In this document: piece by piece, positions 8,248 through 31,738 of the stretch | Position numbering within the stretch: position 1 is the stretch's first letter | Layout: the number at the start of each line of letters is the position of its first letter | Position numbers and translations under genes: made by a program | Origin: Shigella phage pSf-2 | Reading direction: 5' to 3' (one strand) | DNA: 50,109 bases | Sequence record: KP085586 | The notes under the pieces: model-generated | Databases searched by the model: none | Seen by the model: only the letters and a program-made list of their open reading frames with translations | What the model was told of the DNA's origin: nothing

Positions 8248-8259
8248 GGAGATCTGGAA

Positions 8260-9217: not shown

Positions 9218-9223
9218 TGCCCG

Positions 9224-9252: not shown

Positions 9253-9257
9253 CTGTG

Positions 9258-9275
9258 TTTAGCAATTCGTGCTAT
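9258..9275 (-). promoter_or_regulatory. 18-bp dyad motif copy (tttagcaattcgtgctat) in operator-like position
   Basis: Lies 6-23 nt downstream of the -10 above and 20 nt before ATG 9296. Confidence 0.65.
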
Positions 9276-9295
9276 TTACTTAAGGAGTTTATATT

Positions 9296-11080: not shown

Positions 11081-11083
11081 TAA

Positions 11084-11110
11084 AAGCCCCGCAATGCGGG
11101 GCTTTTCTTA
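11084..11110. terminator. bidirectional Rho-independent terminator between convergent genes
   Basis: aagccccgc-aat-gcggggctt hairpin with T-runs on both strands. Confidence 0.6.
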
Positions 11111-11527: not shown

Positions 11528-11573
11528 TATTTTCTCCCATAAAATTTATGGGCGACCGAAGCCGCCCGGGTGA

Positions 11574-12221: not shown

Positions 12222-12277
12222 CTTAACTTCTCCTGATTGGTGTATGAGGTGCATTATAACACCTCATTAATTATTTG

Positions 12278-12295
12278 TTTAGCTATTTGTGCCGT
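12278..12295 (-). promoter_or_regulatory. degenerate copy of 18-bp dyad motif upstream of TATAAT box for Erf-like gene
   Basis: 14/18 match; minus strand has tataat about 21 nt downstream inside an 8-bp inverted repeat. Confidence 0.3.
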
Positions 12296-13360
12296 TTACT
12301 TATTTTGGTAACGCACCCATGATGGCGTTTCAAGTTCGATCTCGCTTGCGTCGCCAGCGTACCCAGGCCAAACATCCATTTCAGAGCAAGCCTTGTAAGT
12401 GTGGACTACGCTAATGTACTGGTTACGACCGATCCTGATTTGCTCCATAGTCATACGGTAAGCCAGTGCGATATAAGGCTCTTTTTTCTCCTGCGCAAGC
12501 AATCGAACTACGATCGGAATATCTTCCGGGAAGTTTCCTTCAAAAGCGCCAGCCTGGATTGCGCGACGTAGCAGGTCATGCTGCAATGCCATCTTCAGGT
12601 AATAGCCGTGATTGTATGCCAGTCTCGGGAACTCTAACGGGTTGGCGCTCATCGTAGTTTTGAAATCTGTGATAATCAGTGCTTCCGGGAAAATTACGTC
12701 TTCAAATACCGGATCACCATTCTCATCATAACCAGTCAGTACACGACCTGGTACATTCTCTTTGTAGTCCAGATGATCTAGTCGAACCTTAACCTTGACG
12801 CCGGATATTTCACCGAAGATTGAGATTTCACGCTGCGCTGTTTCGCTGTTGATGCACGCTTCATGATCGGGGTTCTGTTCAAGTATAGCTCTCATCTTCA
12901 TGCAGGCGTCGTATTTATCAGCGTCGACGAGTTTCTTTCCTTCAGCGCGCGCCTCAGCTTCTGCGATCAGTTCAATCAGGTATTGAACGTTAAGGTCTTC
13001 GCCACAATCAACCATCATTTTGATGAGGTCCGGGTACTGCTTACCGGATGTACCTTTCAGGCCAAAAGATTTTAATTTTGCTGCCAGCGCTGCCTGAGAA
13101 GTAATGAGATCTTTAAACTCTGCCGGAGCCGGACAACGCGCATACGATGCAGTAAACAGATCTCGGCTCTCAAAGTTGGTGTGCGACTGAGTGCCAAACT
13201 CCAGCGCTTTAGTCGTCTCGTTCTTCTTGAATCGCCAGTTAGCCGGGCAAGTCTGATAAATTTCTGCAAGGCTCGAACCGCTTACATACTCTGCCGCCCA
13301 ACCTTCGTTGCTATGATACTCGTCATTAGAAAGCTGACTTGATGTGAATACTTGGAACAT
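12296..13360 (-). CDS. PD-(D/E)XK family exonuclease (recombination exonuclease)
   Basis: VRLDHLD and IITDFKTT motifs; first gene of recombination operon. Confidence 0.55.
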   Translation of the reverse strand: MFQVFTSSQLSNDEYHSNEGWAAEYVSGSSLAEIYQTCPANWRFKKNETTKALEFGTQSHTNFESRDLFTASYARCPAPAEFKDLITSQAALAAKLKSFGLKGTSGKQYPDLIKMMVDCGEDLNVQYLIELIAEAEARAEGKKLVDADKYDACMKMRAILEQNPDHEACINSETAQREISIFGEISGVKVKVRLDHLDYKENVPGRVLTGYDENGDPVFEDVIFPEALIITDFKTTMSANPLEFPRLAYNHGYYLKMALQHDLLRRAIQAGAFEGNFPEDIPIVVRLLAQEKKEPYIALAYRMTMEQIRIGRNQYISVVHTYKACSEMDVWPGYAGDASEIELETPSWVRYQNK

Positions 13361-13391
13361 TGCGTTTATCTCCTTCGTTTACGATGAATCC

Positions 13392-13419
13392 ATTATAGCC
13401 ATTAACAGCGTTTAGTCAA
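13392..13419 (-). promoter_or_regulatory. sigma70-like promoter (TTGACT-16-TATAAT) for recombination operon
   Basis: Near-consensus hexamers 31 nt upstream of ATG 13360. Confidence 0.5.
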
Positions 13420-13639
13420 TCGGATACATGTAATTGGTGTGTAATAGCGTGTCTATATCGCTCAAGTTACAACCAGCATTAACGGAATCAATGGCTTAAG
13501 TCTATTTTTATGTGATGTCTACTGTGTAATACTTGTAACCGCTTTTTCTTAGAAATACAGGGATAGCTACAAGTAGAATCCATATTGATTAAATTTTGAA
13601 CATATATGATAGAAATTTGACGAATCAATCAAATCACCA

Positions 13640-13810
13640 GTTACACGATAGACAACTGTTACACAACAATAATTATATATATAAAGCTAAAATTAAATAT
13701 TATCTATCTATATATATTATATATAGTTTTTATCATATCCCTCTGCGGTCGGGTAGGGTGGATTTTGTAACACCCGTTCCGGTTACAAAAATAGACACCT
13801 GTTACACGAA
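13640..13810. repeat. AT-rich divergent control region with direct repeats TAGACAnCTGTTACAC (x2) and inverted repeat TTTTGTAAC-N10-GTTACAAAA
   Basis: Repeats at about 13644-13660 and 13790-13806; palindrome at about 13765-13792; (TA)n tract 13700-13725. Confidence 0.45.
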
Positions 13811-13828
13811 AAAATTGTAATCGCACTA

Positions 13829-13857
13829 TTGCAATAAAAGTAAATGCGACATACAAT
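13829..13857 (+). promoter_or_regulatory. sigma70-like promoter (TTGCAA-17-TACAAT) for lipoprotein gene
   Basis: Hexamers with 17-bp spacer, 29 nt before ATG 13887. Confidence 0.45.
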
Positions 13858-13886
13858 GCAATCACACTAACGACGAGGACATACAA

Positions 13887-14117
13887 ATGAAAAAGTTAAT
13901 CACCATTATCACCGCTGCATTCATCCTGACTGGTTGTGCTCAGAATCTTAAAAATGGCGACTGCGTTACTTACGCGTACGGCTCTTGCATGATGCGATTC
14001 GTTGATGGTAAAAAGGTTCCGGCTGGCGAAATTGACATGCGATTCAAAGGTCTGTCATCCGACGACGATCAGGGTAACTTTAGCGGCAAGGTATCAATCA
14101 AAACTAAAGAGTGGTAA
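13887..14117 (+). CDS. small lipoprotein, Cor-like superinfection-exclusion candidate
   Basis: Signal peptide with lipobox LTGC; 76 aa; lies next to J gene on opposite strand as cor does in FhuA-dependent phages. Confidence 0.55.
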   Translation: MKKLITIITAAFILTGCAQNLKNGDCVTYAYGSCMMRFVDGKKVPAGEIDMRFKGLSSDDDQGNFSGKVSIKTKEW

Positions 14118-14119
14118 TT

Positions 14120-15076
14120 ATGGGGCAAGGAATATACATAAATCTAAATGACGGTCGCCCGGCAATGGAGATAACTTCAGGGCTTCGCGCCCCGTCATGG
14201 TGCGGACCTATACAGGCTGACGGGGTTGATTCATCTGGATCGGTTTTTGATTTTGGTTTGCAAATGAGTCCAGGGTCTACTGCTTTTTGCCTTCCATCTC
14301 AGGCTATCTACATAGACGATATGGATTACATCCCGGAGGTGTATTATTTGACCAGTTTTCAGAAGGTCAATGATTCAACCGGACGAATAACGGTAGGTAA
14401 TTTTAACGGGCACGGTGGAAGGAGGATGAGATTTTATGGCAACTGTTACGAAATCCTCCCCGCTCAGGCTGGAAGTCAGGGGATACTTGTTAACGATTCA
14501 ACGAACTTCGCAGCGATACCGAATAACGCCAGATTGATGAGCGCTGCATTTGTTGGGGGTATTCAGGTTAACGGTCAGGCTCAGTTGCCAGTACAGGGCG
14601 TTCCTTTCGGTATGTGGGATAATCCAAACGTAACACTTGAATCTGACGGCAATACAATATGGTGCAGGGATGCAAACTATAACGGGATTGATGACGTTGG
14701 CGCGAGCGTATACGTTCAACTCGTAATATTTAATAACACCCCACCACCTCCCGGCCCTGGAATCACTATGAGCAATCCTGCTGGTCAGATCGTTTTCTCA
14801 AGCGTTCGACGTCCTTTTGTTCTCGGCGGGACTATGGCGATAAATGACGGGTGGCAGTGGTGCGGTGGATTTTTCCCAATACTGAGAACAGGTACGATAT
14901 GCAGAGTTACAGGTGGATATAATAACATTCGATACAAGGGCGTTTGCATGAGCGGCGGTAACGTGAGAAGCACACCCGGAACAAGGGTGGGTAACTATTC
15001 AACCCAAAGCGGAGCGCAATTCCCTTTCAATATAAACATTTCAATGCCAATTCCTTTCACTCCAAACATGTATTAA
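14120..15076 (+). CDS. hypothetical protein co-transcribed with lipoprotein (Gly/Asn-rich, PPPPGPG linker)
   Basis: ATG 14120 three nt after upstream TAA; track start 14111 is GTG; followed by bidirectional terminator. Confidence 0.55.
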   Translation: MGQGIYINLNDGRPAMEITSGLRAPSWCGPIQADGVDSSGSVFDFGLQMSPGSTAFCLPSQAIYIDDMDYIPEVYYLTSFQKVNDSTGRITVGNFNGHGGRRMRFYGNCYEILPAQAGSQGILVNDSTNFAAIPNNARLMSAAFVGGIQVNGQAQLPVQGVPFGMWDNPNVTLESDGNTIWCRDANYNGIDDVGASVYVQLVIFNNTPPPPGPGITMSNPAGQIVFSSVRRPFVLGGTMAINDGWQWCGGFFPILRTGTICRVTGGYNNIRYKGVCMSGGNVRSTPGTRVGNYSTQSGAQFPFNINISMPIPFTPNMY

Positions 15077-15100
15077 AAAAGGGGCCAATCGGCCCCTTTC
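15077..15100. terminator. bidirectional Rho-independent terminator
   Basis: aggggcc-aatc-ggcccct hairpin flanked by A-run and T-run. Confidence 0.6.
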
Positions 15101-15102
15101 TG

Positions 15103-18100
15103 TTACCAGACACCAACAACCACTCGACCACCGTTAGGTAGGTTAACCGTGATCCCGTTATTGTTTATCTGAACTGTGTTATTTGTTCCGTTAAATGCAA
15201 ACTCTCCGTTATTTGCGTAAATTCTACCCCTCACTGTTGCATTCATGAATGAAGCGTCGCCATTCTTGTTTATGGCCCATCCATTATTCCCATCCCAATT
15301 GTTAGATTGAATCCAGTTTCCAATCATGGCATTAGTAATAAATCCATCCTTGATGATCGCGCTACTTAAAATAACCTGACCATTCTCAACAACAAAAGGA
15401 TATTGAGTCTGACCATTCATTCCTGTCATGATGGCAAATCGTGACGCCTCGAATAAGATTTGCGCCTTAACCACAGCGCCTGAACCAATCAGAGACATAG
15501 CCATACCAGCACTGTATTCTTGGCCGTTATACTTCAGACCGAGCTTGACTCCGTACATTGCACCAGTCGAATCCGCATTGCTCCACGAATCAAGTTTTTG
15601 AGAAAGTGCCGCCTCATTATTCCCAAGCCTCGCGCTTAATGACAAGTCAGCTTGCGTTCTCGCCTCAGTCTCGTTTGCTATAGCCTCTCTGATATCAGTC
15701 AAACTTGCCTGAATATCATCACCAATCTCTGCCCTGAGTTGGTCAATTTCACGCGATAGCGCTCCGGTTTCAGTTGCGATAACTTCACGCAATTCGCTAT
15801 TGCTTGCGCTAATCTGATCACCAAAACTTGCCCTTAACTGCTCAACTGCTGTTACTCGCGCCTCAGTCTCATCAGCAATTAGCTTCAGTGATTTGGTGTA
15901 CTCTGCTTTTCGTTTTCCGTTCTCCTTCTTCATGTAGATCGCGTCTTTGTCATTAGCTAGAGCGTTCTCAATTGCTGCCTCTGCGTTCGCTGCGTTCTGC
16001 GCCGCGTTGTCGGTTGCGTTATCAACAAGCCACTCGTAACCCGGCGAGTTTTCGATATCGACAGAAATCTCTCCAATGATATCGTCAACGTTTGTTGATG
16101 CCATGCCTCTGACAAAATCAGTCCACTGAGACGCGTTACCGATCCTGTCAACCGTCCTTACCCGATACCACACAATATTCCCTCCCGGCATCGGTGAGTG
16201 ATAATACTCATGCTGCGGATACGGAATCAAAGAAAGCAAACTTGCGTTATCCACTGTTCCATCCGGTGACTGCTGCAACTCCGTATAGGCCGTATCTCCA
16301 GAACCATCAGAGAACCCCCATTTTGTACGGATACCAAAAACAACATCATCCGTAGCTGTAAGGTTAATCGGTCGGCCCGGTTCACCCTGTTTACCCGTCA
16401 ACGTTGCCGCGACGATATTTGACCAGCCTGAAGTTGTGCCAGAACCAGCGACGGAGCGCACGCGAACCTGATAGTTGCCAGCGTAAATCCCTTCAACATA
16501 AACCTCCTTGTTTGCCGTCTGCGGGACGTTCTGCCAGTTGCCGTTATCCTTTCGCCACTGGACGTCATAGAAAACTGCGTACGGTACTTTATCCCAGCTA
16601 ACAATCATCGTTTCTACGCTCATCCCCTGGACGATTCGTGACTCTGAGGACACTTGCACGTTTTCCGGTCTAGGGATCTGATCTGGTTCAACGATGCTCG
16701 TCGGTCGGTCGTCGATATTAACTCCGTAATCAATCTCATCGTACTTGTTAGGATCGTACTCCACCGCCGTTATTTTGTAGGTAAATTCCTCATCATCATC
16801 GCCCTTGTCGATTTTTGTCACGACGTACTGCTGTAACGCAATGTCGGTGCGGTCGATAGCGAATACCGTGTTAGGCTTCACAGGAAAGCCAAAGCCAATG
16901 TTAACCTCTATAGTCTTACCATCCGCACTAACACTTGATATTGTGCGCTTCACGGGCTTGCCATCTGGCTTATTTACGATAATAAAGTCACCCGCGCGTG
17001 CATCCACCCGGAACGGCAAGAAAATCTGACTACCGGATACTTCGAGCAAGCGCCCTGATAGGTTCATCGTCAAGTTACTTGACCAGAAGTTATCAGCTAT
17101 TGCCACAACATCTCCGATTGTCGGGATCATACCCTCAAGTCCGGTAGCGAAGTTTACCGTAGTGCTGCGGAGGTTAGTTTTCAGAATCCATCTCCCGCGT
17201 CGGTTGGCCTCGCTTCGACGTGTGCAGCCGATCGCTGTAATGCTCGTTACGTTGTTCCCGAACCGTAGAGTAGCCTCACGATCGAATACTGGCTCAACGT
17301 CCTGCTGATACATGTTTTGCTCGTCGTCAAACATCACATTACACGTCGTGTACATGCTCTTTTCGCTTGCAAACGTGTAGGAGAAGTCACCATTAACCAC
17401 GTTGTCGTTAGTGAAGATGTACGCAGGCTCACGCGGCCTATCGATGATTACCGAAATGCTTTCGCCATTCCAAAAGCTCATACCTCGAAAGATTGAGCAA
17501 ATATCTCGAATAACCTTGTAAGCGTCAGTCTGAGACTGGATTATCACGTCGCAAAGGTATCGAGGTTCCGTCCCGCCCTTCCCATCAGGAACCATCTGAT
17601 CGCAATATTGCGCAGCCTCGTAGAGCGCCCATTTATCGACAGCGATACCAAGCTCTTTCTGATCCAAGCCGTAACGCTGATTAATCATCAGGTCATAAAG
17701 AACCCACGCAGGATTATTCGTCCATGCTTTTTTGAAAGTGCCATCCCAATTGCCGTTGTATGTTCGCGATTCTGGGTCGTAGTTCGACGGAACGCTTACA
17801 ATCTTCCAGCGCTTACGAATTGAGATCGTAGGTAACTGGTTTGGGAACATCTTCGAATCGAACTCTACGAAAAGAAGACCAGTCAGAGGATATCGGAATT
17901 TGGCATCAATGACCTCGGCATAGCTTCTTACCTGGATTGCATCAACGACATTCGAGTCATTGGAATCAGGCGTCTTTCGAACAACTCTGAATATTACCTG
18001 ATTGTTGAAGTTAGGCAGGTTTACGCGACGGCTTCGATCATAACCTGACATTGTTTTACCTTCGATTACGTCAGTAAGAACAGTCTCAAACGAACCGCCA

Positions 18101-18552
18101 TCAACCGCTTGCTGCACCTCGTACTCAACTCGAACGCCGTTTTTATCACCATTGCTTTCAATTCGTACACCTCGAGGCATAAACATTTTGATGCGTATTG
18201 CCGATAGTGTTTTATTGGTTACTGAGATCGTGTATGGGTTATCGGTAGTAACCTCACGATTTACAGTTACCTCACTTGAGCTATCTTCCATGCCCTTGAT
18301 GTATTCCTGCGTCTGAGTTCCCGGCCTGAACTCAGCCCTTACCCCTTCGAAGTTGAATGATCCATCCTCGTTTTGCACCGGAACTGAGTTAAACATCAAC
18401 TGCTTTAGGCTGAATGTTTCGTCAATTTCACCATCAGATACAGCTAACAGGATCTTGATTTTGTTGATTGAGATTAGATTGTCCTCCATCTCAACTGGGT
18501 TATGAGGCTTCTGTGACCCACCTTTAGATCCGCTTATCACTTTTTTAATCAT
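15103..18552 (-). CDS. host specificity / central tail fibre protein (lambda J-like)
   Basis: 1149 aa, last gene of I-K-L-M tail-tip cluster, FN3-like segment, beta-rich C-terminus. Confidence 0.85.
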   Translation of the reverse strand: MIKKVISGSKGGSQKPHNPVEMEDNLISINKIKILLAVSDGEIDETFSLKQLMFNSVPVQNEDGSFNFEGVRAEFRPGTQTQEYIKGMEDSSSEVTVNREVTTDNPYTISVTNKTLSAIRIKMFMPRGVRIESNGDKNGVRVEYEVQQAVDGGSFETVLTDVIEGKTMSGYDRSRRVNLPNFNNQVIFRVVRKTPDSNDSNVVDAIQVRSYAEVIDAKFRYPLTGLLFVEFDSKMFPNQLPTISIRKRWKIVSVPSNYDPESRTYNGNWDGTFKKAWTNNPAWVLYDLMINQRYGLDQKELGIAVDKWALYEAAQYCDQMVPDGKGGTEPRYLCDVIIQSQTDAYKVIRDICSIFRGMSFWNGESISVIIDRPREPAYIFTNDNVVNGDFSYTFASEKSMYTTCNVMFDDEQNMYQQDVEPVFDREATLRFGNNVTSITAIGCTRRSEANRRGRWILKTNLRSTTVNFATGLEGMIPTIGDVVAIADNFWSSNLTMNLSGRLLEVSGSQIFLPFRVDARAGDFIIVNKPDGKPVKRTISSVSADGKTIEVNIGFGFPVKPNTVFAIDRTDIALQQYVVTKIDKGDDDEEFTYKITAVEYDPNKYDEIDYGVNIDDRPTSIVEPDQIPRPENVQVSSESRIVQGMSVETMIVSWDKVPYAVFYDVQWRKDNGNWQNVPQTANKEVYVEGIYAGNYQVRVRSVAGSGTTSGWSNIVAATLTGKQGEPGRPINLTATDDVVFGIRTKWGFSDGSGDTAYTELQQSPDGTVDNASLLSLIPYPQHEYYHSPMPGGNIVWYRVRTVDRIGNASQWTDFVRGMASTNVDDIIGEISVDIENSPGYEWLVDNATDNAAQNAANAEAAIENALANDKDAIYMKKENGKRKAEYTKSLKLIADETEARVTAVEQLRASFGDQISASNSELREVIATETGALSREIDQLRAEIGDDIQASLTDIREAIANETEARTQADLSLSARLGNNEAALSQKLDSWSNADSTGAMYGVKLGLKYNGQEYSAGMAMSLIGSGAVVKAQILFEASRFAIMTGMNGQTQYPFVVENGQVILSSAIIKDGFITNAMIGNWIQSNNWDGNNGWAINKNGDASFMNATVRGRIYANNGEFAFNGTNNTVQINNNGITVNLPNGGRVVVGVW

Positions 18553-18598
18553 GATGTTTACCTTTTTGTGCTATTTATCTGTGGACTCATTATACAGG

Positions 18599-18626
18599 CG
18601 AAAAAAAACCCGCGCAAGGCGGGTTA
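18599..18626 (-). terminator. intra-operon terminator/attenuator between I-like and J-like genes
   Basis: acccgc-gcaag-gcgggt hairpin followed on minus strand by T8; same stem-loop as at 20788. Confidence 0.5.
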
Positions 18627-18629
18627 ATT

Positions 18630-19229
18630 TTAACTCATATCCTCGGCATAAGAACCTGCTGAGAAAGTTGCGCCACCTCCGGCGCGATATCCATACGGGA
18701 CCGGGAGAGGGTATCCCGCCGCCGTCGTATTGACAGCACCGCCGAACGCGTACGAAGGTTTATTCTTGCTTGATTGAACTTCAAAGTTTGCGCCACCCGG
18801 CTGCGGTGAAATCATCTGCATTACGCCGCCCAGCACCATAGCGCCGCCCATCATAAACAGAGACGAGGACATTGTGCCCATTAAAGCCAGAGACGCGCCG
18901 CCAGTATAGAATGCTGCAACCATTATTGCCGCGCCCAATACAACCTGGAATAGACCTCCCGTCTTAGAACCAGTGGGGATCGGTACGATTCTTATCTCTT
19001 TCGCGCACTTGAATTTTTCCTCTTCATGGTGTCCCACGTTAACGCCATCCACAAATATTGCAAACTTGCTACGTGATCCGACTTCACTCTGCATGTATTC
19101 TTTAAACCCGTCCACCTGACTGGATAGCGCACGGATAGCTTCCGGGTAAGAGTCAACAGCAAATCGGTGAAAGACGCCAAAGCGCCTTCCAAGTGAACCT
19201 GATAATTTGATTACTTTTACATCATTCAT
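18630..19229 (-). CDS. tail assembly protein (lambda I-like)
   Basis: 199 aa between K-like and J-like genes; Gly-rich hydrophobic C-terminus. Confidence 0.7.
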   Translation of the reverse strand: MNDVKVIKLSGSLGRRFGVFHRFAVDSYPEAIRALSSQVDGFKEYMQSEVGSRSKFAIFVDGVNVGHHEEEKFKCAKEIRIVPIPTGSKTGGLFQVVLGAAIMVAAFYTGGASLALMGTMSSSLFMMGGAMVLGGVMQMISPQPGGANFEVQSSKNKPSYAFGGAVNTTAAGYPLPVPYGYRAGGGATFSAGSYAEDMS

Positions 19230-19993
19230 AATTTGAGATCCTTATGGCGAACAATTAAAACAGTGTGTTCCTGATACCAGCCTGAATAAATATCACGTCG
19301 CGACAGCTTACCGAAGGCGTGATGCAAGATCTGATTATCACCCAGGTAAATCCCTGCGTGATTCCATACCGGAACATTTTGCCCTATTTGCATGATTACC
19401 ATATCACCAAATGAAGGCTGATTCTGATCTGGAATCTCAACGAATCCATCTTGCTTGTAATAATCCTGATAGAGATTTATTCCATACTCCGGTTTCCACC
19501 ATTCAAAATTCAATCGCCGATCGCGTAATTCTACGCCGTGCTCTTTGTGCCACGCCATAACAAGACCGTAACAGTCGAATGATCCTAATGACCACGGACG
19601 ACCAATCAGAGGTAATTTCTCCGGCTTCACAAATCGCATATCTCCTTCCGGCACGCTAACAATAATCCAGGTAACTTCCATCTCGTTGCACATGCACGTA
19701 TCGTGAGCGCTTGGTAGAGTTGTAGCCCCATCTCCGGTGTGGCTGTGAACAATTGCGATCGTAGTTGATTCCGAATCGTCCTCAATACATGCGTATTGCA
19801 CTGCGTCCATCATGAAGTGATTTTCAGGATCACGGTGTACATTATCAACGCGATGGTATTTTTGCACGCGGCCCTTTTGGGTGACTACCCCGCAGCATTC
19901 GCGGGGGTATTCTTCCTGAGCGTGAGTCATAATTTCAAGTTTAATTTTTGCACTAATCATTGATTTTTCCTCTGTAGTGAAGCGACAGCGCAA
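19226..19993 (-). CDS. tail assembly protein (lambda K-like; MPN/JAB plus NlpC/P60-like domains)
   Basis: HSHTG metal-binding motif and Cys/His residues; position after L-like gene. Confidence 0.8.
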   Translation of the reverse strand: MRCRFTTEEKSMISAKIKLEIMTHAQEEYPRECCGVVTQKGRVQKYHRVDNVHRDPENHFMMDAVQYACIEDDSESTTIAIVHSHTGDGATTLPSAHDTCMCNEMEVTWIIVSVPEGDMRFVKPEKLPLIGRPWSLGSFDCYGLVMAWHKEHGVELRDRRLNFEWWKPEYGINLYQDYYKQDGFVEIPDQNQPSFGDMVIMQIGQNVPVWNHAGIYLGDNQILHHAFGKLSRRDIYSGWYQEHTVLIVRHKDLKL

Positions 19994-20739
19994 CCGCCAA
20001 AATCCAATTCATTGTTTGCACCGAATCTCAGGCGGCAGGCCGTTACTGTTCCTGGGCAAAAATCCAGCGAAGGATCGTCTACCGGATTATTGTCTTTATC
20101 GAAGTAACCATTTTGCCCGTTGTATCCGCACCCTTTCCCGGTTTTATACCATCCCCTCTGCGCCCAATAGCAGACACTTTGTGTGAGTCTGGACGGGATC
20201 ATGATGCCGTCCATATCGTAAGGTGACGTTAGATCGAACCGCGCAATGCTTTTATCAACATAGTTCGGACGCTCGATATAGTATACCAGTTTGCGGTAAG
20301 CTCCGTCAGCGATTGAGCCATCAGATTGAATCAAGTCCTTTTGAGTTATCCAGATTGTCACCTTCGCCTGCATCAATCCGTTATATGCGCGAATCATTGC
20401 AGACACTCGACTGTCAATGTTTGCCACTGTCAATTGTGGCTTTGTGGCCTTGCCGGAACTGTCGAACGAGATCCCGGATATACCGAAAGGTCGCGCGCCG
20501 TATTGCTCGCCACGGAAGGTGATTTCTTTCGGCGGTAGCGTTCCGGTTTGCTGGGCCTGCATGATTTCTTCTGGAGTGTACTGGATATTCTCACCGTGGA
20601 ATCGGTACACCTGAGCGCCGAACTTACTACCATCAACTTCAATGAGAGTGATTATCTCTCCCGGATATAGTGATTGAAGGCAGTTGTGAAACAGGCTCTT
20701 TCCGCTTTCTTCATCATAAAGTTTTTTGTTTTCGCTCAT
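19957..20739 (-). CDS. minor tail protein (lambda L-like)
   Basis: 260 aa between M-like and K-like genes; C-terminal Cys cluster. Confidence 0.8.
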   Translation of the reverse strand: MSENKKLYDEESGKSLFHNCLQSLYPGEIITLIEVDGSKFGAQVYRFHGENIQYTPEEIMQAQQTGTLPPKEITFRGEQYGARPFGISGISFDSSGKATKPQLTVANIDSRVSAMIRAYNGLMQAKVTIWITQKDLIQSDGSIADGAYRKLVYYIERPNYVDKSIARFDLTSPYDMDGIMIPSRLTQSVCYWAQRGWYKTGKGCGYNGQNGYFDKDNNPVDDPSLDFCPGTVTACRLRFGANNELDFGGCAVASLQRKNQ

Positions 20740-20779
20740 TTATTTTTCCTCTTGTTTACCTGCAACCATTCTACAGCTA

Positions 20780-20810
20780 CAAAAAAACCCGCGCAAGGCG
20801 GGCTTTTGTT
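20780..20810. terminator. terminator-like hairpin between M-like and L-like genes
   Basis: cccgc-gcaag-gcggg stem-loop flanked by A7 and T-run; near-identical to hairpin at 18608. Confidence 0.5.
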
Positions 20811-20818
20811 ATATGGCG

Positions 20819-21172
20819 TTACTCCATAGATGTAAACTGCTCCATAAACGTAACGTTAATTTCCATCACGTCGCGTGATACTGGCTTAGCTCCCAGGCTG
20901 TTAGGCTTTACAACCCATATTCCGATCTTCCCGTCCGGCGGCGTCCATGCGAACGGTTTAATTCTGTGAGAATCGCAGAAGTTGTAAACAGCCATGAAAT
21001 CCTCACCAGCGTAGACAATCGAATACTCGCGTCTCGTGGTGTTGAATCCAGAAGATGCAAGCTGCATGTAGCCGTTGCCAAACTGTATGGATCTGTCATT
21101 ATTGGTAGTGGTAAGGGAGCCGCCGCCCCCTTGAACCTGCGTACACCAACCGAAAGTGTCAAGTGCAGCCAT
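20819..21172 (-). CDS. minor tail protein (lambda M-like)
   Basis: FGNGYMQ...YS...WTPP pattern matching lambda gpM; directly downstream of tape measure. Confidence 0.85.
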   Translation of the reverse strand: MAALDTFGWCTQVQGGGGSLTTTNNDRSIQFGNGYMQLASSGFNTTRREYSIVYAGEDFMAVYNFCDSHRIKPFAWTPPDGKIGIWVVKPNSLGAKPVSRDVMEINVTFMEQFTSME

Positions 21173-21239
21173 TATTAGCCTCCTGTTTTTTCCTGAATGT
21201 AATTGTAAACCTCACCGCCCTGTGAACAAGACTCTCGAA

Positions 21240-24047
21240 TCATTTTTTGAACATCATTTCTACGCCCTGAGAAATTCCTCTCGGATCTGAACCGTTGTCA
21301 ACTTTAACCTCCATACCCCTAACATCAACGACCGTCCCGCCTGCTGATTGGTTCACTGCCTTCGGTGCGGATTTAGATGCGTTAAATCCAGATGTTGCAA
21401 CACTACCCGCAGCGGCAGCAAGCGAGGTAACAGCGACGCCTGAAGATAAAGACCTAAAACCAGAGACGGCAGGCGTAGGAGTTTCCTGTGATACCGCAGA
21501 AGCACCAGGCGACACCCCTCCAGCAAAGCTCCACGTCTTACCGCCCATCATGCCTGAGATCGTATTGAAGATTACCATTTGAGCAATCATCTTGATAATC
21601 ATGCTAATGATGTTTTTCGCAAAGTCCTCAAAATTTGCCTTACCTGTAGTCAGGAATTGGGTCATCATGTCACTCATTCCGTTAAGTGAACTTGACGCGA
21701 TATCATACACGTTGCCGTACATATCCATTGCAGAATCGCCGTAATCTGCAAATGCACTTTCAGCACCTGCTAACCAGTCAGAACGCTTGGCATCTTCCGC
21801 AGCATAGTAATCATTTTGTGCCTTGATCATGTTCTGGAGTTTTTCATCTCCTTCGCTGCCACCTGCATTAATATAATCAGTAGTGATCTTAGCCAACTCA
21901 GCTTGTCTTTCCATTTCTCGGGTGCTCATCCCTCGAGACGCGTTTAGCTGTTCTGTAGCTGCCGTCAAATCATTGACAAATTTCAGTGATTTATCGGTAA
22001 GAGCGTTCAGCTGCTGCTGCTTAACAATCTGATCGCCAATCTCAGCCTTTTGTTTCGCAAGCTCTAAAACCTTCTCTTGGTTTGCAAGTAGTGCTTTTTC
22101 TTCCGCAGATAGCTGACGCTTAGAACTAGCTTCTCGAAGAACAGCAATTGTAGCCTCAGTCGTAAACAGCGCCTTTCTCTGTGCTGATATTTTTTGCCCG
22201 ATCTCCTTGTGCTCCTGCAAAACCTTAAGCTGCGCTTTGAGTGAAATTAACTCCTTATCGAATTGCTCTGTAGGTGAGCGTAAAATTTTCGACTGCTTAT
22301 TTCGTTCACGGTTTCGCTTTTCGATCTCTTTAGCTTCTTCCTTGATAGCGTCCTTAGTTTCCTGGCTATACTGCTTTTCAAGAGTACGGCGCTGCTTCAT
22401 TGCTTCAATGTATCCCATCTCACCTTTTTCAACACGGGCGTTAATGGCATCAAGCTCTGAAGCTAACTGATCGTAGTTGTCACGAGAACTTTTTACAATA
22501 TTCTCCTGTTCCTTTAGTACATCAGCACCAAAATCACTCATGCCAGGCAGGGACTGTGTAGCCTTAATTGCAGATGCGATAAAGTTTGAGATGTACTCAT
22601 CACCCTTAGCAAGAATCATTTTCACCTGAATTACTGTACCTTGAACTACGTCAATAATCAGGTTTAACGCTCCGAGCGTATGATCCCCAACCCATCCCCA
22701 CGCATCAGAAGCCCACTGCTTAATATCGTTCCACATTTTTTCAAGAGGTGTGGCATTGTCTGCGATCGACTTCATTCGTTTTTCCATTACATCGGCGAAT
22801 AATTTCGTGGCTTCAGACACTGCCTCCGTTTCACCCTTAGTACGGCTTAGAGTATCGATGTATGTCAGCTGTCCTTTTTCTAAAAAATTGTATTGCTCGT
22901 TAAGTTTAGCTAAACCCTTTACAGGATCGCTTGCGATTTTATCGAACTCAGCGATGATTTTACTTGCTGATTTTCCGGTTGCTGTCGACCACTCAGCGGT
23001 AGCTTTTGTGATGTTCTGAATCTGCTCTCGCGTATACTTCCCCGTACTGGCAAGTTCAGTAACAATATCACGAATACTTCCAACGGTTGAGTTACTTGTC
23101 TGCGCAACCTTTTTAGCAACCAAATCAAGATCATCAGCCGTAACTCCAGCATAACCTCCAGTCTCAATAAGTGCATTCTGCATATCAGTTATTGACTTGT
23201 AAGAGTCATAACCAGCTTTCGCAAGAAGACCTAAAGAACCGACAAGAACACCAACGCCAACTGTGACCGGATTAATATAACTTAGCAATACCTTAAACGT
23301 ATTCCCGATCCCGCCGAACGAGTCCTTGATTTGACCGCCTTGCTGGATGGCAACCATCCAAACTGGCATACCGGACGCAAGAGATGTAACGACGTCGGTA
23401 ATCTGTGCAGGAAGCATTCGCATTGCCTGCCTATATTGCCCTGCGCTAATACCTGCGGCATTCATGGCTCGACCCTGTTCTTTCAGTTTTGCGATCAGGG
23501 GCGCTGCTTCATTTGATAGTCCAAGCTGAGCCGCTTTCAGTTCCATTAACTCTGCGTGAGTTTTGCCAATGGCGTTAACCTGACTATTCAGGGAATCCAT
23601 GAACGCTTTGTTTTTCGCTGCCGCCTGCTCTTTTGCTTTCGCCTCCTGCAATGCTGCCTGACCTTCTTCTGTAAGCATGGCCCGGCTGCGAGCAAGTTTT
23701 GCGTTTTGCATATCCAGCATTTCACCTAACCGGAAAAATGTTTCATCTGGAACGACGCCCTTTTGCCAGAGCTTGTCAAGCTGCTGAGATGCAATCTTCA
23801 GCCTTTCCATTTTTGATACTGTAGGATCGATTGCCTTTTCTACAGCCTCGTACTCTTTTCGCTGGCGCTTAAGTTGCTCAGCGTGTTCTTTAGCCTTCTG
23901 TTTTGCAACCTCAGCCTCATTGATTAAAGACCCCATAGAGTCAGCGGCTTGGTCGTTAGCTTTTGAAAACTCTTTCAATGACTTGACGGCGCGCTCCACT
24001 GTCGACACATCAACGTCAAGCGATAGACCTGCTACCTTATCAACCAT
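21240..24047 (-). CDS. tail tape measure protein
   Basis: 935 aa, coiled-coil rich, Gly/Ser C-terminal region, between chaperones and M-like gene. Confidence 0.85.
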
Positions 24048-24062
24048 ATAACCCCCTTATAT

Positions 24063-24086
24063 ACAAAAAAACCGCCAAACGGCGGC
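24063..24086 (-). terminator. terminator/attenuator hairpin
   Basis: ccgcc-gttt-ggcgg followed by T7 on minus strand, overlapping stop of 24087 ORF. Confidence 0.45.
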
Positions 24087-24413
24087 TTAGTTATTCTGCT
24101 TAGCAATCATTTCGAGCGCTTTCGCTTCCATGATCCTAACGTCCTGCAATGCCAGTTCTTCATCCTCTATTTTATAGATTTTAAACAACATAGGCAAAAC
24201 ATTATAATCAAGACCGTAAGCGCCAGCGCCTGAACTTCTCCACTGAGTGAGCATTGATGTAAAAACATTCCAAGCCTTCAACATTTCAGCGTCGCCAATT
24301 ATCGTTTCCGGTTCCTCGTCTTCATAGTCAGAAAGACTTAAACCAACCGATCGCAATTGTTCCTCTGTTGGCGGCTTCTGATATAACAGATAGACCGCCT
24401 TTTTTAGTTTTTT
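24087..24413 (-). CDS. T-like extension of tail assembly chaperone, expressed by -1 frameshift from 24404..24721
   Basis: -1 frame is open from the slippery heptamer to stop at 24087; no ATG (track start is TTG); position before tape measure. Confidence 0.6.
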   Translation of the reverse strand, partial: KKLKKAVYLLYQKPPTEEQLRSVGLSLSDYEDEEPETIIGDAEMLKAWNVFTSMLTQWRSSGAGAYGLDYNVLPMLFKIYKIEDEELALQDVRIMEAKALEMIAKQNN

Positions 24414-24721
24414 GCGCGGTGTCCGGCAAGCGCCTTGATGTAAGTCGCTGTCAGGTTGTACGCTGCGGAAGGATAATACTGAACCAGTTTTCGTGAATTT
24501 TCTTCGTTAAATTCTTCTTCAAGGTTCCATCCTGACGCGATCTTGGTAATGAACTCGCTGTCGTTCATTTCTCCCTGGTTAGCATACATGTCCTGAACTT
24601 CTTTACTGGAAAGGTGTCGCACAGTGAAAATGATCGTTGCATCTTCACCGTTAGGCATGGTGAAGGTAACTGGAAGTTTGAAGTCTGGAAGTTGACCAAG
24701 AACGAAATTAAATTTAGCCAT
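24404..24721 (-). CDS. tail assembly chaperone (lambda G-like)
   Basis: 105 aa, acidic; ends GCA AAA AAC TAA so a slippery heptamer precedes the stop. Confidence 0.65.
   Translation of the reverse strand: MAKFNFVLGQLPDFKLPVTFTMPNGEDATIIFTVRHLSSKEVQDMYANQGEMNDSEFITKIASGWNLEEEFNEENSRKLVQYYPSAAYNLTATYIKALAGHRAKN
24407..24413 (-). other. -1 programmed frameshift slippery heptamer A AAA AAC
   Basis: X XXY YYZ heptamer in zero frame of G-like ORF immediately before its stop. Confidence 0.6.
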
Positions 24722-24742
24722 GATATTTCTCCTGATTGGTTA

Positions 24743-24760
24743 ATAGCACTTTTTGTTAAA
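24743..24760 (+). promoter_or_regulatory. 18-bp dyad motif copy (atagcactttttgttaaa), opposite orientation to flanking late genes
   Basis: 21 nt upstream of G-like start 24721 on other strand; followed by accaatcaggag leader. Confidence 0.55.
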
Positions 24761-24792
24761 AGCAAAGAGTGCAAAGTTGATACGATGATTTT

Positions 24793-24823
24793 ACAGAAAT
24801 GAAGAAGGGGGCGCAAGCCCCCT
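24793..24823 (-). terminator. terminator-like hairpin after major tail gene
   Basis: aggggg-cgcaag-ccccct hairpin, modest T-rich tract. Confidence 0.35.
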
Positions 24824-24834
24824 GTGGATATGAT

Positions 24835-25503
24835 TTAGGCACCAGGTGATGCCAGAGCGGATGAAACGAAAGTGAAATCACCCTTCAGGGATACGGCGAG
24901 TTGTACCGTTTCCATTTCGTTTACTTGCGTAGATGGAATGTCGTTAAAAGACAAGATACCAGCCCACATGCGCATCTCGTTCGCTTTTGGAACATACATC
25001 CGAACCGCAGTTACCTGACCAGAAGAATCCAGCTTACGCAGAATAGGATAGATAGGGTTATCAAATTCGTGCGCGAAGGTGTACGTTAGCGAGATTGCAG
25101 ACTTAAACGTCGGGATCTGCTGCTCTTTATCGTCAGACAAACACTGATAAGTGTAATACTGCTGCTCGCCGCCGTCCTGACCAATCTCCTGTACGCAAGG
25201 GATCTCAGTCCAGCCAGTAATTTTTGCAAAGCTCATTGTACCGCCAGCCGGGAAAACAAGAGCATCAGTAGTGTCAATCCCAGCAAGAGTAATGCTTGTT
25301 TCTTGGGCGTCAGTAACAATTAGTACTCGACTAACCATCTTAGCCCAAGTTGACTGAGTTACAATAACGTAATCACCTTTCGCCAAGTCGCCCTTAGATG
25401 CAACTGTAGCAACAGGATTTTTTGCGTTAGTGACAGCGGTCGCCTCGATCTCTTCTCCGCGAGAGGTTTCCACGAAAATTTGCGCGCCATTTGGTAAGTG
25501 CAT
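24835..25503 (-). CDS. major tail protein
   Basis: 222 aa, beta-rich, directly upstream of chaperone pair. Confidence 0.55.
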   Translation of the reverse strand: MHLPNGAQIFVETSRGEEIEATAVTNAKNPVATVASKGDLAKGDYVIVTQSTWAKMVSRVLIVTDAQETSITLAGIDTTDALVFPAGGTMSFAKITGWTEIPCVQEIGQDGGEQQYYTYQCLSDDKEQQIPTFKSAISLTYTFAHEFDNPIYPILRKLDSSGQVTAVRMYVPKANEMRMWAGILSFNDIPSTQVNEMETVQLAVSLKGDFTFVSSALASPGA

Positions 25504-27458: not shown

Positions 27459-27488
27459 AAAAAAAGGGACTAACTAAGTTAGCCCCTA
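27459..27488 (-). terminator. Rho-independent terminator after major capsid gene
   Basis: About 9-bp stem gggactaac/gttagcccc, T7 on minus strand. Confidence 0.55.
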
Positions 27489-27493
27489 TAATA

Positions 27494-28453
27494 TTACACG
27501 CCAGTGATTAAGACAATAGTCATCGGGCGATAAATTGTAAGACCAGTACACTTAGAGGTGCAAGGCACTTTAAAGTGCAAGTCTTTCGGTTGTGCTGGCA
27601 GCATGTTAAATGCTTCCGGGATCTCGATGGACATGTTCATCGGATTCTTTTCGTACACCAGTACGCCTTTGGTGCCTGCGCCGTCAATATCCTCAAGCTC
27701 TGCGATAGAGTCGATTTCGATACCTGAGTTCTGAGACTTGAAATAGTCCAGATAAGACATGGTAGTCTCAGGCATACGAATCGCCAGCACCTTACGCATG
27801 GACGGCGGGATCAGAATGTTGGTAGCTCGGTGCTGGCCTCGAGTAATCGTCTCGATGGTTTCGATCGCCTGAGTCAATTCCGCTTCAGCCGTTTCCGGTT
27901 TCTGAGTTGCGCCATCCATCCACTTACCGGAGGTAATTTTGGTGATGTTCGGATGATTGAACACGGACACAATCTTGTGCGGCGCGGAACCTTTGAACAC
28001 CAGGCGGTTAACAAGCTGATCATGAGCCAACTGGCACGCACTTGCCTTACGGGTTGACAGTGGACGACCAGTTGCCTGACCTGCTTTGATTTCGTCGATT
28101 GAGATCAGATACGCGTTACCAAGACGGAACACCTTGCCAAACTCAGAAGTACCCAGGGCGTCAACCAGCGGAAGATCGTCGGTGTAGTCTGCGATAATCT
28201 GAGCCGTACCAACCTTGTCAAAGGTCATGTATTCAAACGTCTTATCAGTCGGAGAAAGATCGGTTGTAACCGGGAATACGCGTAGAGCGGAGCCGACCGG
28301 GTAGTCTTCTTCATAGGACTGGCTTTTAATGCGGTGTAGTTCCTGAGCGGTCCAGATACCCATTGTTGCGGCTGCATCCTGTTTTACGCCAGCCTGGATC
28401 AGATACATTTCAACATTGCTTTTATCTGCTTCATCAAATTTTTTAGTAGTCAT
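27494..28453 (-). CDS. major capsid protein
   Basis: 319 aa, in capsid position downstream of scaffold and decoration-like genes, followed by strong terminator. Confidence 0.75.
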   Translation of the reverse strand: MTTKKFDEADKSNVEMYLIQAGVKQDAAATMGIWTAQELHRIKSQSYEEDYPVGSALRVFPVTTDLSPTDKTFEYMTFDKVGTAQIIADYTDDLPLVDALGTSEFGKVFRLGNAYLISIDEIKAGQATGRPLSTRKASACQLAHDQLVNRLVFKGSAPHKIVSVFNHPNITKITSGKWMDGATQKPETAEAELTQAIETIETITRGQHRATNILIPPSMRKVLAIRMPETTMSYLDYFKSQNSGIEIDSIAELEDIDGAGTKGVLVYEKNPMNMSIEIPEAFNMLPAQPKDLHFKVPCTSKCTGLTIYRPMTIVLITGV

Positions 28454-28472
28454 GATTACTTCTCCGTAGTTA

Positions 28473-28499
28473 ATAAAAAAGCCGTGATTATGTTCACGA
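28473..28499 (-). terminator. short hairpin plus T-run between promoter-like element and capsid gene
   Basis: cgtga-ttatgt-tcacg then T6 on minus strand. Confidence 0.35.
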
Positions 28500-28507
28500 C
28501 TTCAATA

Positions 28508-28525
28508 ATAGCACTTTTTGTTAAA
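28508..28525 (+). promoter_or_regulatory. 18-bp dyad motif copy (atagcactttttgttaaa) inside a minus-strand TTGACG-16-TATTAT element
   Basis: Motif occupies spacer of sigma70-like hexamers 28527-28532 and 28505-28510. Confidence 0.5.
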
Positions 28526-28544
28526 GCGTCAAAGTGTTTTTATG

Positions 28545-29312
28545 TTATGCATCAACCTCTGGCTCTGGCACTGCTTCTACGCGATAAGCAATGGTTGCCG
28601 TCGTCTTGCTGGCATCGTTAGCCGTCCATGTGATATTGAAATCACCGACAGATTCTCCACCAGCAGGAGTTACAAGACCTGAGTCAGGATCGATAGTAGC
28701 GATATTGGTAGCGTCTATTGACCACTTGCCAGTCTTATCAGTTGCATTAGCTGGAATAACATTAGCTACACACTGGATCGTAACGTTGTTTGGCTGAGGG
28801 CTTTCCTTGTCAGTGGTGATTGTAGCGGACTCAACAAGAACGACAGGGGGCGGCGGCGGTGGAACGATGAAAGCATTTTGTTTCACCTGAACCTCAATAA
28901 TGTAGCCATCTTCATGCTTAACAAAGCCGCCAGCAAAGGTCCATCCTGCGGAACCAGACCAACCAGTAACAACTCCACCAGATCCAAACTGCAACTTTGA
29001 GAACAAGCCGGGAGCCTCATCAAGAGAAGTAAGCGCCCACATGCGACCGTGAGAAACGACGTTGCAAACTTCGCCGTCGAGAATTTTACCGCTCAGGTGT
29101 TCATATTGAGAACGGAAAGCGATACCGTAAGGAGTCCCGCCATCAGAAAGTACTTTGACGACTTTTACACCATCAACGATGCCGACAACCTGAACCGCCG
29201 CGCCGAACTCAATGTCACCTTGAGCCACACAAGCGCCATCAATATTGTAGGTTGAAGTATCAGAAAGATTTCCCGGACACGCCGGGCGCAACATTAAATT
29301 TTCGTAAGCCAT
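28545..29312 (-). CDS. capsid-associated protein, paralog of 29374..29850 with poly-Pro linker and Ig-like C-terminal domain
   Basis: Shared N-terminal YNIDGACV...GAAVQVV...TPYG block; PPPPPPP linker. Confidence 0.5.
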   Translation of the reverse strand: MAYENLMLRPACPGNLSDTSTYNIDGACVAQGDIEFGAAVQVVGIVDGVKVVKVLSDGGTPYGIAFRSQYEHLSGKILDGEVCNVVSHGRMWALTSLDEAPGLFSKLQFGSGGVVTGWSGSAGWTFAGGFVKHEDGYIIEVQVKQNAFIVPPPPPPVVLVESATITTDKESPQPNNVTIQCVANVIPANATDKTGKWSIDATNIATIDPDSGLVTPAGGESVGDFNITWTANDASKTTATIAYRVEAVPEPEVDA

Positions 29313-29325
29313 AATGATTTCTCCA

Positions 29326-29358
29326 TAAAAAAAGGACTATCCAAAAAAGGATAGTCCC
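29326..29358 (-). terminator. Rho-independent terminator
   Basis: ggactatcc-aaaaaa-ggatagtcc hairpin, T7 on minus strand. Confidence 0.5.
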
Positions 29359-29373
29359 CATATTAAACGCTAA

Positions 29374-29850
29374 TTACAGTTGATGCAACTGAACCTCAAC
29401 AAGCTGAATATCTTTGTATTTAGTCCAACCGCCAGCGTAGGTCCAGGTTGTTTCGATCGTGCCATCAGATTTTTCCTGACCATCAACATCAAGTTTAACG
29501 GCAGAGCCGAAAGTTGGTGCTTCGGTGGATTTGGAAAGCATCCATACTCGGCCTGAAGTCATCACGTTGATAGCGCCGCCATCTTCGTAAATCATCTGAT
29601 TTTGAGCGTTAACAGTCTGCCAGTGAGATCGGATTGCCACGCCGTAAGGAGTGGTTCCGGTAGTAAGAGCCTTAACCAACTTATGACCATCAACCGCCTG
29701 AGATTGAACAACTTGTACGGCAGCGCCAACAAGAACATCACCTTCATTAACGACACAAGCGCCGTCAATATTGTACTTTGAAGTGTCCGCAACCATACCC
29801 GGAAGCGCAATCGCCATATCTCGCTGATAAGATGCATTAATTTGTGCCAT
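29374..29850 (-). CDS. capsid-associated protein (decoration-like candidate)
   Basis: 158 aa, paralogous to N-terminal domain of 28545..29312. Confidence 0.5.
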   Translation of the reverse strand: MAQINASYQRDMAIALPGMVADTSKYNIDGACVVNEGDVLVGAAVQVVQSQAVDGHKLVKALTTGTTPYGVAIRSHWQTVNAQNQMIYEDGGAINVMTSGRVWMLSKSTEAPTFGSAVKLDVDGQEKSDGTIETTWTYAGGWTKYKDIQLVEVQLHQL

Positions 29851-29861: not shown

Positions 29862-30974
29862 TTACATTACTTTGCTTAAACGTGAATTTGGCGTAACAGG
29901 CGCGGCGTCGTTTTTCTCTTCCGGCTTACCGCCTTCGATAGAGTCGCCTTTTACTGCTTTACGCTGAATAGCCATGATATCAGAATCTTTAGCAACATCA
30001 AACATAGCGTCGATATATGCGTCTGATTTTTCACTAACATCTTTATCAAGCATGGCTTTAACTACGGCAATCTTGACGTCTTTGATATCAAGACCATCAT
30101 GTTTGACGCCTGCGGTTTCTGCTACTGCGGTAACTTCTGCGCGTGCGGCGGCATCGGCTTTTTGCTTCTCTACCTCGGCCTTCACAAGTTCCGGCAGAGA
30201 GTCAACCTTAACCTTCAGCGCATCGCGCTCAGCTTCGAAGCCATCAGCTTTGCCCTGAATGGTAGCAATCTGCGCGGTTAATTTTTCGATATGGTTCGCA
30301 ACTTCTTCGGTTACTTCCACATCAACTGAGTCGATCTTAATTTTTTTCATTTGCTTGTCCTCGTTAGTTAATTGAACGTTATTATCATACGGGAACTCCT
30401 GTTCGGCATCAAGATTTAATTTAGCAATTCCCGCACGACCTTTGAAAACAAGTGCAATATGGTTGACCTTGATATTAGTCTGTACCGCGTCAAATTTCAC
30501 CCAGCCTTCAGGTGGCGCTTCGTCCTGTTTCATATCCTCTTCGAAGATATATTCTCCAGTCTCATTTGAACCCCATCCCGGTTTATCAATATCTACTGAC
30601 GTGTAGCCAACAGATAATTCACCAGCTTCTTTTGCTTTAGCCTTGCTGATCGCGTAGTCGCTGTAAATGCTCAAAGGGACTTCAACTCCAACACCTGAAG
30701 CAATACCAGCGCCAGCGCACGATCCTACAACAACGTCCTTAGCATTCTGCGGAGTTACCGTTACGTGACCGACAGTAATTGGCTTCCCCGCAAAACTTTG
30801 CAAGGAGTCTTGCTTGAAAACTTCGGACGCCGGACGGAACTCAACTCGATCGCCGTGCGGCGTTTTGTAAACCTGAGCGCCGATTCGCGCCACGATTGGG
30901 CGGTCAACTAAAAAACCGTTATCATCAAAGTGCGCCTTGATTTTTACTGAATCGAATCTTTGCTTTGCCTTCAT
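29862..30974 (-). CDS. capsid scaffolding protein (possible protease-scaffold fusion)
   Basis: Coiled-coil, Ala/Lys/Glu-rich C-half; aggag SD before ATG 30974. Confidence 0.5.
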   Translation of the reverse strand: MKAKQRFDSVKIKAHFDDNGFLVDRPIVARIGAQVYKTPHGDRVEFRPASEVFKQDSLQSFAGKPITVGHVTVTPQNAKDVVVGSCAGAGIASGVGVEVPLSIYSDYAISKAKAKEAGELSVGYTSVDIDKPGWGSNETGEYIFEEDMKQDEAPPEGWVKFDAVQTNIKVNHIALVFKGRAGIAKLNLDAEQEFPYDNNVQLTNEDKQMKKIKIDSVDVEVTEEVANHIEKLTAQIATIQGKADGFEAERDALKVKVDSLPELVKAEVEKQKADAAARAEVTAVAETAGVKHDGLDIKDVKIAVVKAMLDKDVSEKSDAYIDAMFDVAKDSDIMAIQRKAVKGDSIEGGKPEEKNDAAPVTPNSRLSKVM

Positions 30975-30976
30975 TT

Positions 30977-31738
30977 TTAATCTCCTGTAGAAAAGTCTGG
31001 AACAGCCCAACAGCGGCAATTGTATTCCTCACCCGGGAATACGTGATCGGAATCTACCGCTATGCGCTTACCTTCCCATCTTACATGTTTTTCACGTTCA
31101 CGTAAATCCATCACCCCACGCCAGAAATAGTAAGAGACTCCAGCGTCTTTTATGCGCTGACGCATTAGTCTACTGTTCCAAGTTCCAACAATTCCCGACG
31201 CTCTATTTTTGGCCCAATTCCGGTAAACACCAAATCGCTCATTAGCAAGTTCAACAACAAAATCCTTGCTTTTACCCTGACCGGATGCAGCACGAAGTTT
31301 ATCAGTGAAATCAGTAACCATGTTGGCAGCAAATTTCCTGATAGAAGTAGTCACCTGCGATCGCCACAGATTATATTGTCCTGAGTACCAGCTTTCGGCA
31401 GCGGCAGGACCAATCAGGGCAAGTAGCATAACAGCTTGATTCTTCTTACCTCCAGCATTGCGAGCGATACGCAGCCACTGCTTAGAGTTGAATTTATAGA
31501 TCGTGAGCGCAACGGATGATAGAGAACCAATAATCGGAGCGATGAGTGATTCGACGTAATCAAGCAATGACCTTTCTGTCTGATCTATCTCTTCGTCGGT
31601 AGCATCAAATTTCATCGGCTTTAATTCGTCACGCATTTTTTCAGTTAGTTTGGCTGCAACATCCTGTAGGGAGCGCGACATTGCGCGCTCGCTCATTTCA
31701 GGATAGCGCCACTGTGTTGCAACGCCATTAATTTTCAT
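30977..31738 (-). CDS. head morphogenesis / minor capsid protein
   Basis: 253 aa immediately downstream of portal with overlapping start. Confidence 0.5.
   Translation of the reverse strand: MKINGVATQWRYPEMSERAMSRSLQDVAAKLTEKMRDELKPMKFDATDEEIDQTERSLLDYVESLIAPIIGSLSSVALTIYKFNSKQWLRIARNAGGKKNQAVMLLALIGPAAAESWYSGQYNLWRSQVTTSIRKFAANMVTDFTDKLRAASGQGKSKDFVVELANERFGVYRNWAKNRASGIVGTWNSRLMRQRIKDAGVSYYFWRGVMDLREREKHVRWEGKRIAVDSDHVFPGEEYNCRCWAVPDFSTGD

Follow-up and report, generated by a model that had tools for sequence, protein, structure and literature searches.

Tandem genes assigned to capsid cement proteins in the T1-like Shigella phage pSf-2, one of them with an Ig-like extension

The head of the siphophage T1 is the closest described counterpart of the gene pair considered here. 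Its structure was published by Chen et al. in Viruses in 2025 with five deposited PDB entries, 9KZJ among them, and revealed a T=7 head with 415 subunits of gp47, the major capsid protein, in which gp49 forms 80 homotrimers and a further 60 trimers are heterotrimers, each made of one gp48 and two gp49 subunits (PMC11945409). Counted from these published trimers, a head carries 360 copies of gp49 (80 x 3 + 60 x 2) and 60 copies of gp48. A beta-tulip fold resembling that of TW1 gp56 and lambda gpD is seen in gp49 and in the N-terminal portion of gp48. The two proteins differ in their attachment: gp49 has an extended N-terminus that lies embedded in the capsid's inner surface, unlike decoration proteins anchored on the outer surface only, and gp48 is located on the outside only (PMC11945409). 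Residues 2-153 of gp48 were built into the map, and residues 154-255, a flexible C-terminus represented by weak protruding density only, were modelled with AlphaFold3; the authors hypothesised that this protrusion may aid adsorption, in comparison with T5 and crAss001 (PMC11945409).

Several other phage systems share part of this organisation. The Pfam family PF22758 (Phage_cement), described as “Structural cement protein (E217 gp24/Pam3 gp6)”, takes its name from E217 gp24, of a Pseudomonas phage, and Pam3 gp6, each of which is a single named protein. In T5 pb10 and T4 Hoc, a capsid-binding module is combined with one or more exposed Ig-like domains for which weak adherence has been proposed. 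The capsid-binding domains of pb10 and Hoc have no relationship to the cement domain, and these proteins sit as monomers at the hexon centres and not as subunits of a threefold trimer. Phage lambda has one decoration protein only, gpD, whose gene has the scaffold/protease genes on one side and the major capsid gene on the other, as do the genes described below.

The window analysed here is the whole stretch of 50,109 nucleotides of Shigella phage pSf-2 (KP085586). Because its head region (27400-31100) shares 98.1% nucleotide identity with Escherichia phage ADB-2 and 96.6% with phage T1 (megablast), the window is assigned to Tunavirus (Drexlerviridae) as the genome, of about 50 kb, of a T1-like phage. 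Positions 1..25000 have their best match at just 93.5%, to the Shigella phages phiL, ISF002 and Shfl1, as against 98% between the head module and ADB-2. The genome is mosaic, with recombination of the kind typical among Tunavirinae, and pSf-2 could be a separate strain or species.

Pfam and PHROG searches delineated a head module on the minus strand, composed in order of the genes for the large terminase, the portal, a Mu F-like head morphogenesis protein, a DUF2213 protease/scaffold, the 158-aa protein (paralog 1), the 255-aa protein (paralog 2), the major capsid protein (PF09950), a DUF7444 protein and a DUF4054 protein, the last being annotated in the T1 record as a head-to-tail connector complex protein (Table 1). 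The two genes of interest are flanked by the head protease/scaffold and major capsid genes, and the same succession of protease, cement gene(s) and major capsid gene is also found in T1, Webervirus, Tlsvirus and Warwickvirus. The 319-aa major capsid protein corresponds to T1 gp47. For the protease/scaffold gene, the mechanically delimited ORF (29862..31019, minus strand) starts with TTG, encodes 385 aa and runs into the 3' part of the Mu F-like gene's end region; an internal ATG at 30974 (“MKAKQRF”, 370 aa) coincides with the protease/scaffold start annotated in T1, giving the same length of 1113 nt, and the TTG is probably not the real start. Among all ORFs of the window, BLASTP with the Ig and cement domains as queries returned neither a third paralog nor a further related Ig domain, and tRNA, Rfam and tandem-repeat scans over the whole window gave nothing relevant.

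Table 1. Features of the pSf-2 head module around the two cement genes (positions refer to the window)
Feature	Position	Strand	Basis
Cement/decoration paralog 1, 158 aa, ortholog of T1 gp49 / CPTT1_029	29374..29850	-	PF22758, 106.3 bits
Paralog 2, 255 aa, ortholog of T1 gp48 / CPTT1_030	28545..29312	-	PF22758 and Big_2
Paralog 2, N-terminal cement (predicted beta-tulip) domain, residues 1-150	28863..29312	-	PF22758, 61.7 bits, residues 8-143
Paralog 2, six-proline linker, residues 151-156	28845..28862	-	Regex search of the translation
Paralog 2, C-terminal Big_2 Ig-like domain, residues 157-255	28548..28844	-	Pfam Big_2
Terminator-like hairpin and T-run separating the two paralogs	29325..29359	-	Scan; 11-bp stem
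Promoter-like site (TTGACG, 16 nt spacer, TG-TATTAT)	28532..28505	-	Consensus scan
Second terminator-like hairpin, directly abutting the promoter-like site, upstream of the major capsid gene	28503..28478	-	Scan
Third terminator-like hairpin, after the major capsid gene	27487..27465	-	Scan/folding
Major capsid protein, 319 aa, HK97 fold, cement-binding surface	27494..28453	-	PF09950, 213 bits; PHROG 264, major head protein
Head maturation protease/scaffold (DUF2213), upstream synteny marker	29862..30974	-	Pfam DUF2213; PHROG 530; T1 annotation

Both cement ORFs start with ATG and are preceded by a GGAG/GGGG Shine-Dalgarno-like ribosome-binding site. Residues 15-157 of paralog 1 align with residues 11-145 of paralog 2 at 44% identity over 147 positions (BLASTP, E 9e-34), a similarity far beyond chance by which the two proteins are recognised as paralogs. 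The four blocks that the original prediction had reported as common to them are present in each, at residues 26 of the 158-aa protein and 22 of the 255-aa protein for YNIDGACV, 42 and 37 for GAAVQVV, 67 and 60 for TPYGVAIRS/TPYGIAFRS, and 136 and 124 for WTYAGG/WTFAGG. The linker of the longer copy, read there as seven prolines (PPPPPPP), is a run of six. The extra domain, announced as roughly 100 aa and Ig-like, comprises 99 residues and matches Big_2 (PF02368) at residues 176-240 with 35.4 bits, for a cutoff of 22.8.

The N-terminal domains of both proteins score above the gathering cutoff of PF22758, set at 27 bits (Table 1), and also match a related family, PF23982, which corresponds to the XM1 gp53 minor capsid protein; both proteins fall in phrog_1989. 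Comparison with PDB sequences (phmmer) gave much closer relatives. Between the 158-aa protein and a chain of 9KMG, 9KMH and 9KZJ labelled “Decoration protein / cement protein II”, 1 residue in 158 is different (about 99% identity, E 8e-103). The 255-aa protein departs from chain H of 9KZJ, a “BIG2 domain-containing protein”, at about 13-14 of the 254 residues aligned (about 95% identity, E 3e-161), and from the “Decoration protein gp29” of 9KMH at a somewhat larger number. At these values the two proteins are orthologs of the T1 pair, which the T1 record AY216660 lists as CPTT1_029, “capsid decoration protein”, and CPTT1_030, “IgG-domain-containing decoration protein”. The entries 9KMG and 9KMH, with “gp29”, derive from a second T1-like phage, and a literature search by PDB codes identified no publication behind them. 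The proposal that a decoration or auxiliary capsid protein has been duplicated is supported by the membership of both copies in Phage_cement and by their near-identity to chains in cryo-EM structures; concerning their presence in virions, on which this proposal had been made to depend, orthologs of both (about 99% and 95% identity) are found in the solved T1 virion. A literature search for virion proteomics of T1-like phages mentioning an Ig-like decoration protein retrieved nothing specific.

The likeness to T1 extends to the lengths of the proteins (158 and 255 aa), the gene order, the intergenic terminators, the hexaproline linker and the Big_2 domain. The differences amount to a few substitutions, and residues 157-255 of paralog 2 (99 aa) are identical to those of ADB-2 and not to those of T1. 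Towards the namesakes of PF22758, the resemblance is that of members of the same family, with a weak direct match to chain G of 8HDT (“Cement”, phmmer, E 1.3e-4); the tandem arrangement with an Ig extension is seen here in some Drexlerviridae genera, whereas E217 gp24 and Pam3 gp6 are single named proteins. Lambda gpD and TW1 gp56 resemble the T1 cement proteins in being trimeric beta-tulip proteins that occupy threefold and quasi-threefold positions on a T=7 HK97-fold shell (PMC11945409). Neither was matched in the Pfam and PDB searches, and the link with gpD is a fold-level resemblance only (PMC11945409). A single-sequence AlphaFold2 model of the 255-aa protein was unusable for its fold (mean pLDDT 34.7, pTM 0.17), and the fold assignment was for this reason drawn from homology to the solved structures.

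Taken together, the products of the two genes are almost certainly the capsid cement (decoration) proteins in a T1-like siphophage, for which virion location, stoichiometry and fold would be carried over from T1 at 95-99% identity. No observation made here speaks against this structural identification. In the corresponding assembly scheme, the HK97-fold major capsid shell would expand first, and beta-tulip cement trimers would then occupy all the threefold and quasi-threefold junctions of the T=7 lattice, clamping neighbouring capsomers. The 158-aa protein would be the bulk subunit, forming 80 homotrimers with its N-terminus threaded to the inner capsid surface, and the 255-aa paralog would take one subunit place in 60 heterotrimers (one gp48 to two gp49), leading to about 360 gp49-type and 60 gp48-type subunits per head. 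The shorter N-terminus of the 255-aa paralog would stay outside the shell, and its hexaproline could act as a rigid spacer holding the Big_2 Ig-like domain away from it. In Tunavirus, Tlsvirus and Warwickvirus, the N-terminus of paralog 2 is 3-5 residues shorter than that of paralog 1, which fits the difference published for the N-termini of gp48 and gp49.

The position of the heterotrimers can be narrowed further. A T=7 lattice offers 140 trimer sites, divided into 20 icosahedral threefold sites (one per hexon), 60 quasi-threefold sites surrounded by hexons only (three per hexon) and 60 penton-hexon-hexon sites (two per hexon). The legend of Figure 2A in the T1 study mentions four homotrimers and two heterotrimers, drawn with one hexon and one penton (PMC11945409). 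Because this legend and the total of 60 fit only the penton-adjacent class, we infer, from counts and legend and beyond what the paper itself states, that the heterotrimers lie where one penton and two hexons join, gp48 being their odd subunit. With such a placement, the 1:2 composition would mirror the one penton and two hexons that meet there.

Homologs of paralog 1 were retrieved by tblastn at 1096 places in 839 records of the phage collection, so roughly 250 records hold two detectable copies, and the Ig domain was retrieved in 176 records. In a comparison of one genome per genus, Tunavirus, Warwickvirus and Tlsvirus have two cement genes and Webervirus, represented by Klebsiella phage KP1801, a single one encoding 173 aa. 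Salmonella phage Sephi301i (Tlsvirus) encodes two paralogs of 159 and 146 aa with no Ig domain in either, and PeterMerian (Warwickvirus) encodes a 169-aa protein and a 260-aa protein with Big_2 and no polyproline linker. Paralog 1 retains 50-59% identity between genera; paralog 2 is fast-evolving, with about 30%, and the paralogs 2 of Tunavirus and Warwickvirus are collinear through the Ig domain at about 28% overall identity.

The intergenic elements of the module are also partly conserved. The hairpin after paralog 1 (29359..29332) has a centroid fold of -17.4 kcal/mol (z -3.85), and the promoter-like site and second hairpin together span 28472..28532 (minus strand). The T1 record AY216660 carries annotated terminators, including a rho-independent one between the cement genes, and a promoter at the same positions. 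A hairpin after paralog 1 is positionally conserved in Warwickvirus (PeterMerian, locus 3015..3036) and Tlsvirus (Sephi301i, locus 2985..3006), its stem sequences being unrelated between the three genera, and the layout of a promoter abutting a hairpin recurs in PeterMerian (locus 3862..3915). A transcript initiated at the promoter-like site would start inside the second hairpin and would therefore escape that terminator. The hairpin after the first gene would lower the expression of the second, and the promoter before the capsid gene would restore transcription; as judged purely from consensus scans and folding energies, this layout could set the 360:60:415 dosage of the subunits.

Other readings of the pair deserve consideration. 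The Ig part of paralog 2 gave PHROG matches to Ig-domain structural and tail-tube families, some of them named “major tail protein”, and it aligns with residues 375-460 of the 468-aa “Tail tube protein” chain 8HQZ (phmmer, E 1.6e-4). Together with the label “hypothetical protein” borne by both genes in most database records, this could be taken to indicate that the two ORFs encode tail, other non-capsid virion or non-structural proteins with an incidental similarity to cement proteins. The tail-protein matches, however, cover only the Ig domain (residues about 155-250), the scores of the N-terminal domains against Phage_cement lie well over its cutoff, and the chains modelled in the T1 capsid density are nearly the same as the two proteins; the solved T1 head structure 9KZJ refutes this reading and leaves it practically no probability. 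The cement assignment being retained, the age of the pair is another matter. At 46% identity, the paralog 2 of Tunavirus stands nearer to the paralog 1 beside it than to the paralogs 2 of Tlsvirus and Warwickvirus (only about 30%), as would be expected if the pair had arisen by a recent lineage-specific duplication, or had been partly homogenised by gene conversion, instead of being the unaltered product of one ancient duplication common to it and other Drexlerviridae. We consider such a history unlikely: the cement and Big_2 parts are collinear in the paralogs 2 of Tunavirus and Warwickvirus, which have the motifs DKTGxW and WTAND in common, the N-terminal truncation is likewise shared by the second paralogs, and a fast rate of change in paralog 2 could be enough to explain these identities, obtained from one genome per genus.

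By analogy with other capsid Ig domains, that of paralog 2 could plausibly bind glycans of the cell surface or the environment in a weak and reversible manner, helping adsorption; no experiment on glycan binding by this domain in T1-like phages was found in the literature. The tentative idea of the original prediction, adhesion to host surfaces through the Ig module, agrees with what the T1 authors hypothesised. The main role of paralog 2 is nonetheless probably structural rather than display, as argued by the existence in Tlsvirus of a second paralog without the Ig domain. A more radical version of this view would make the second paralog a mainly geometric element, a cement subunit adapted to the penton-facing quasi-threefold position, with the Ig domain as a dispensable and non-adhesive passenger. 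It is in agreement with the 146-aa second cement paralog of Tlsvirus, with 1:2 heterotrimers whose count of 60 equals the number of penton-hexon-hexon sites, and with the shortened N-terminus of paralog 2 in the three of three genera examined. Yet Big_2 has been kept collinear in Tunavirus and Warwickvirus at only about 28% overall identity, suggesting selection to keep the domain, and the Ig-like capsid domains of T4 Hoc and T5 pb10 are generally known to be surface-exposed and implicated in weak adherence; we regard the passenger hypothesis as a serious possibility, while leaning against it. Returning to an adhesive Ig domain, the joint proposal of a penton-facing paralog 2, an abundance of one in seven set by the terminator and promoter, and Ig domains acting, at five per vertex, as a secondary adhesin is, as a whole, unlikely. 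If it were true, the Ig adhesin would affect adsorption or host range in T1-like phages.

The cement pair itself is already known, being annotated in GenBank for T1, with a structure deposited and published in 2025. The discovery value is accordingly little, since proteins, fold, copy numbers and capsid positions have been available for T1 from that year, and the present analysis adds the distribution of the duplication over genera and the positionally conserved terminator-like hairpins. The flexible, Ig-bearing gp48, at 60 copies per head, is a plausible handle for phage display or engineering. The practical value lies mainly in annotation, both cement genes being labelled “hypothetical protein” in most of the other related records. 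In the Sephi301i record (PP503414.1), the two cement paralogs (locus 2501..2980 and 3024..3464) bear the labels “N-acetylmuramoyl-L-alanine amidase” and “peptidase”, which are probably misannotations since Pfam places both in Phage_cement / XM1_gp53. Finally, about 20 records of about 47 kb each named “Campylobacter phage” (e.g. MG065663.1, A134) contain cement paralogs of the T1 type, with about 49% identity; such a host label is unexpected for a head module of the Drexlerviridae type and may reflect misassigned hosts or contamination.
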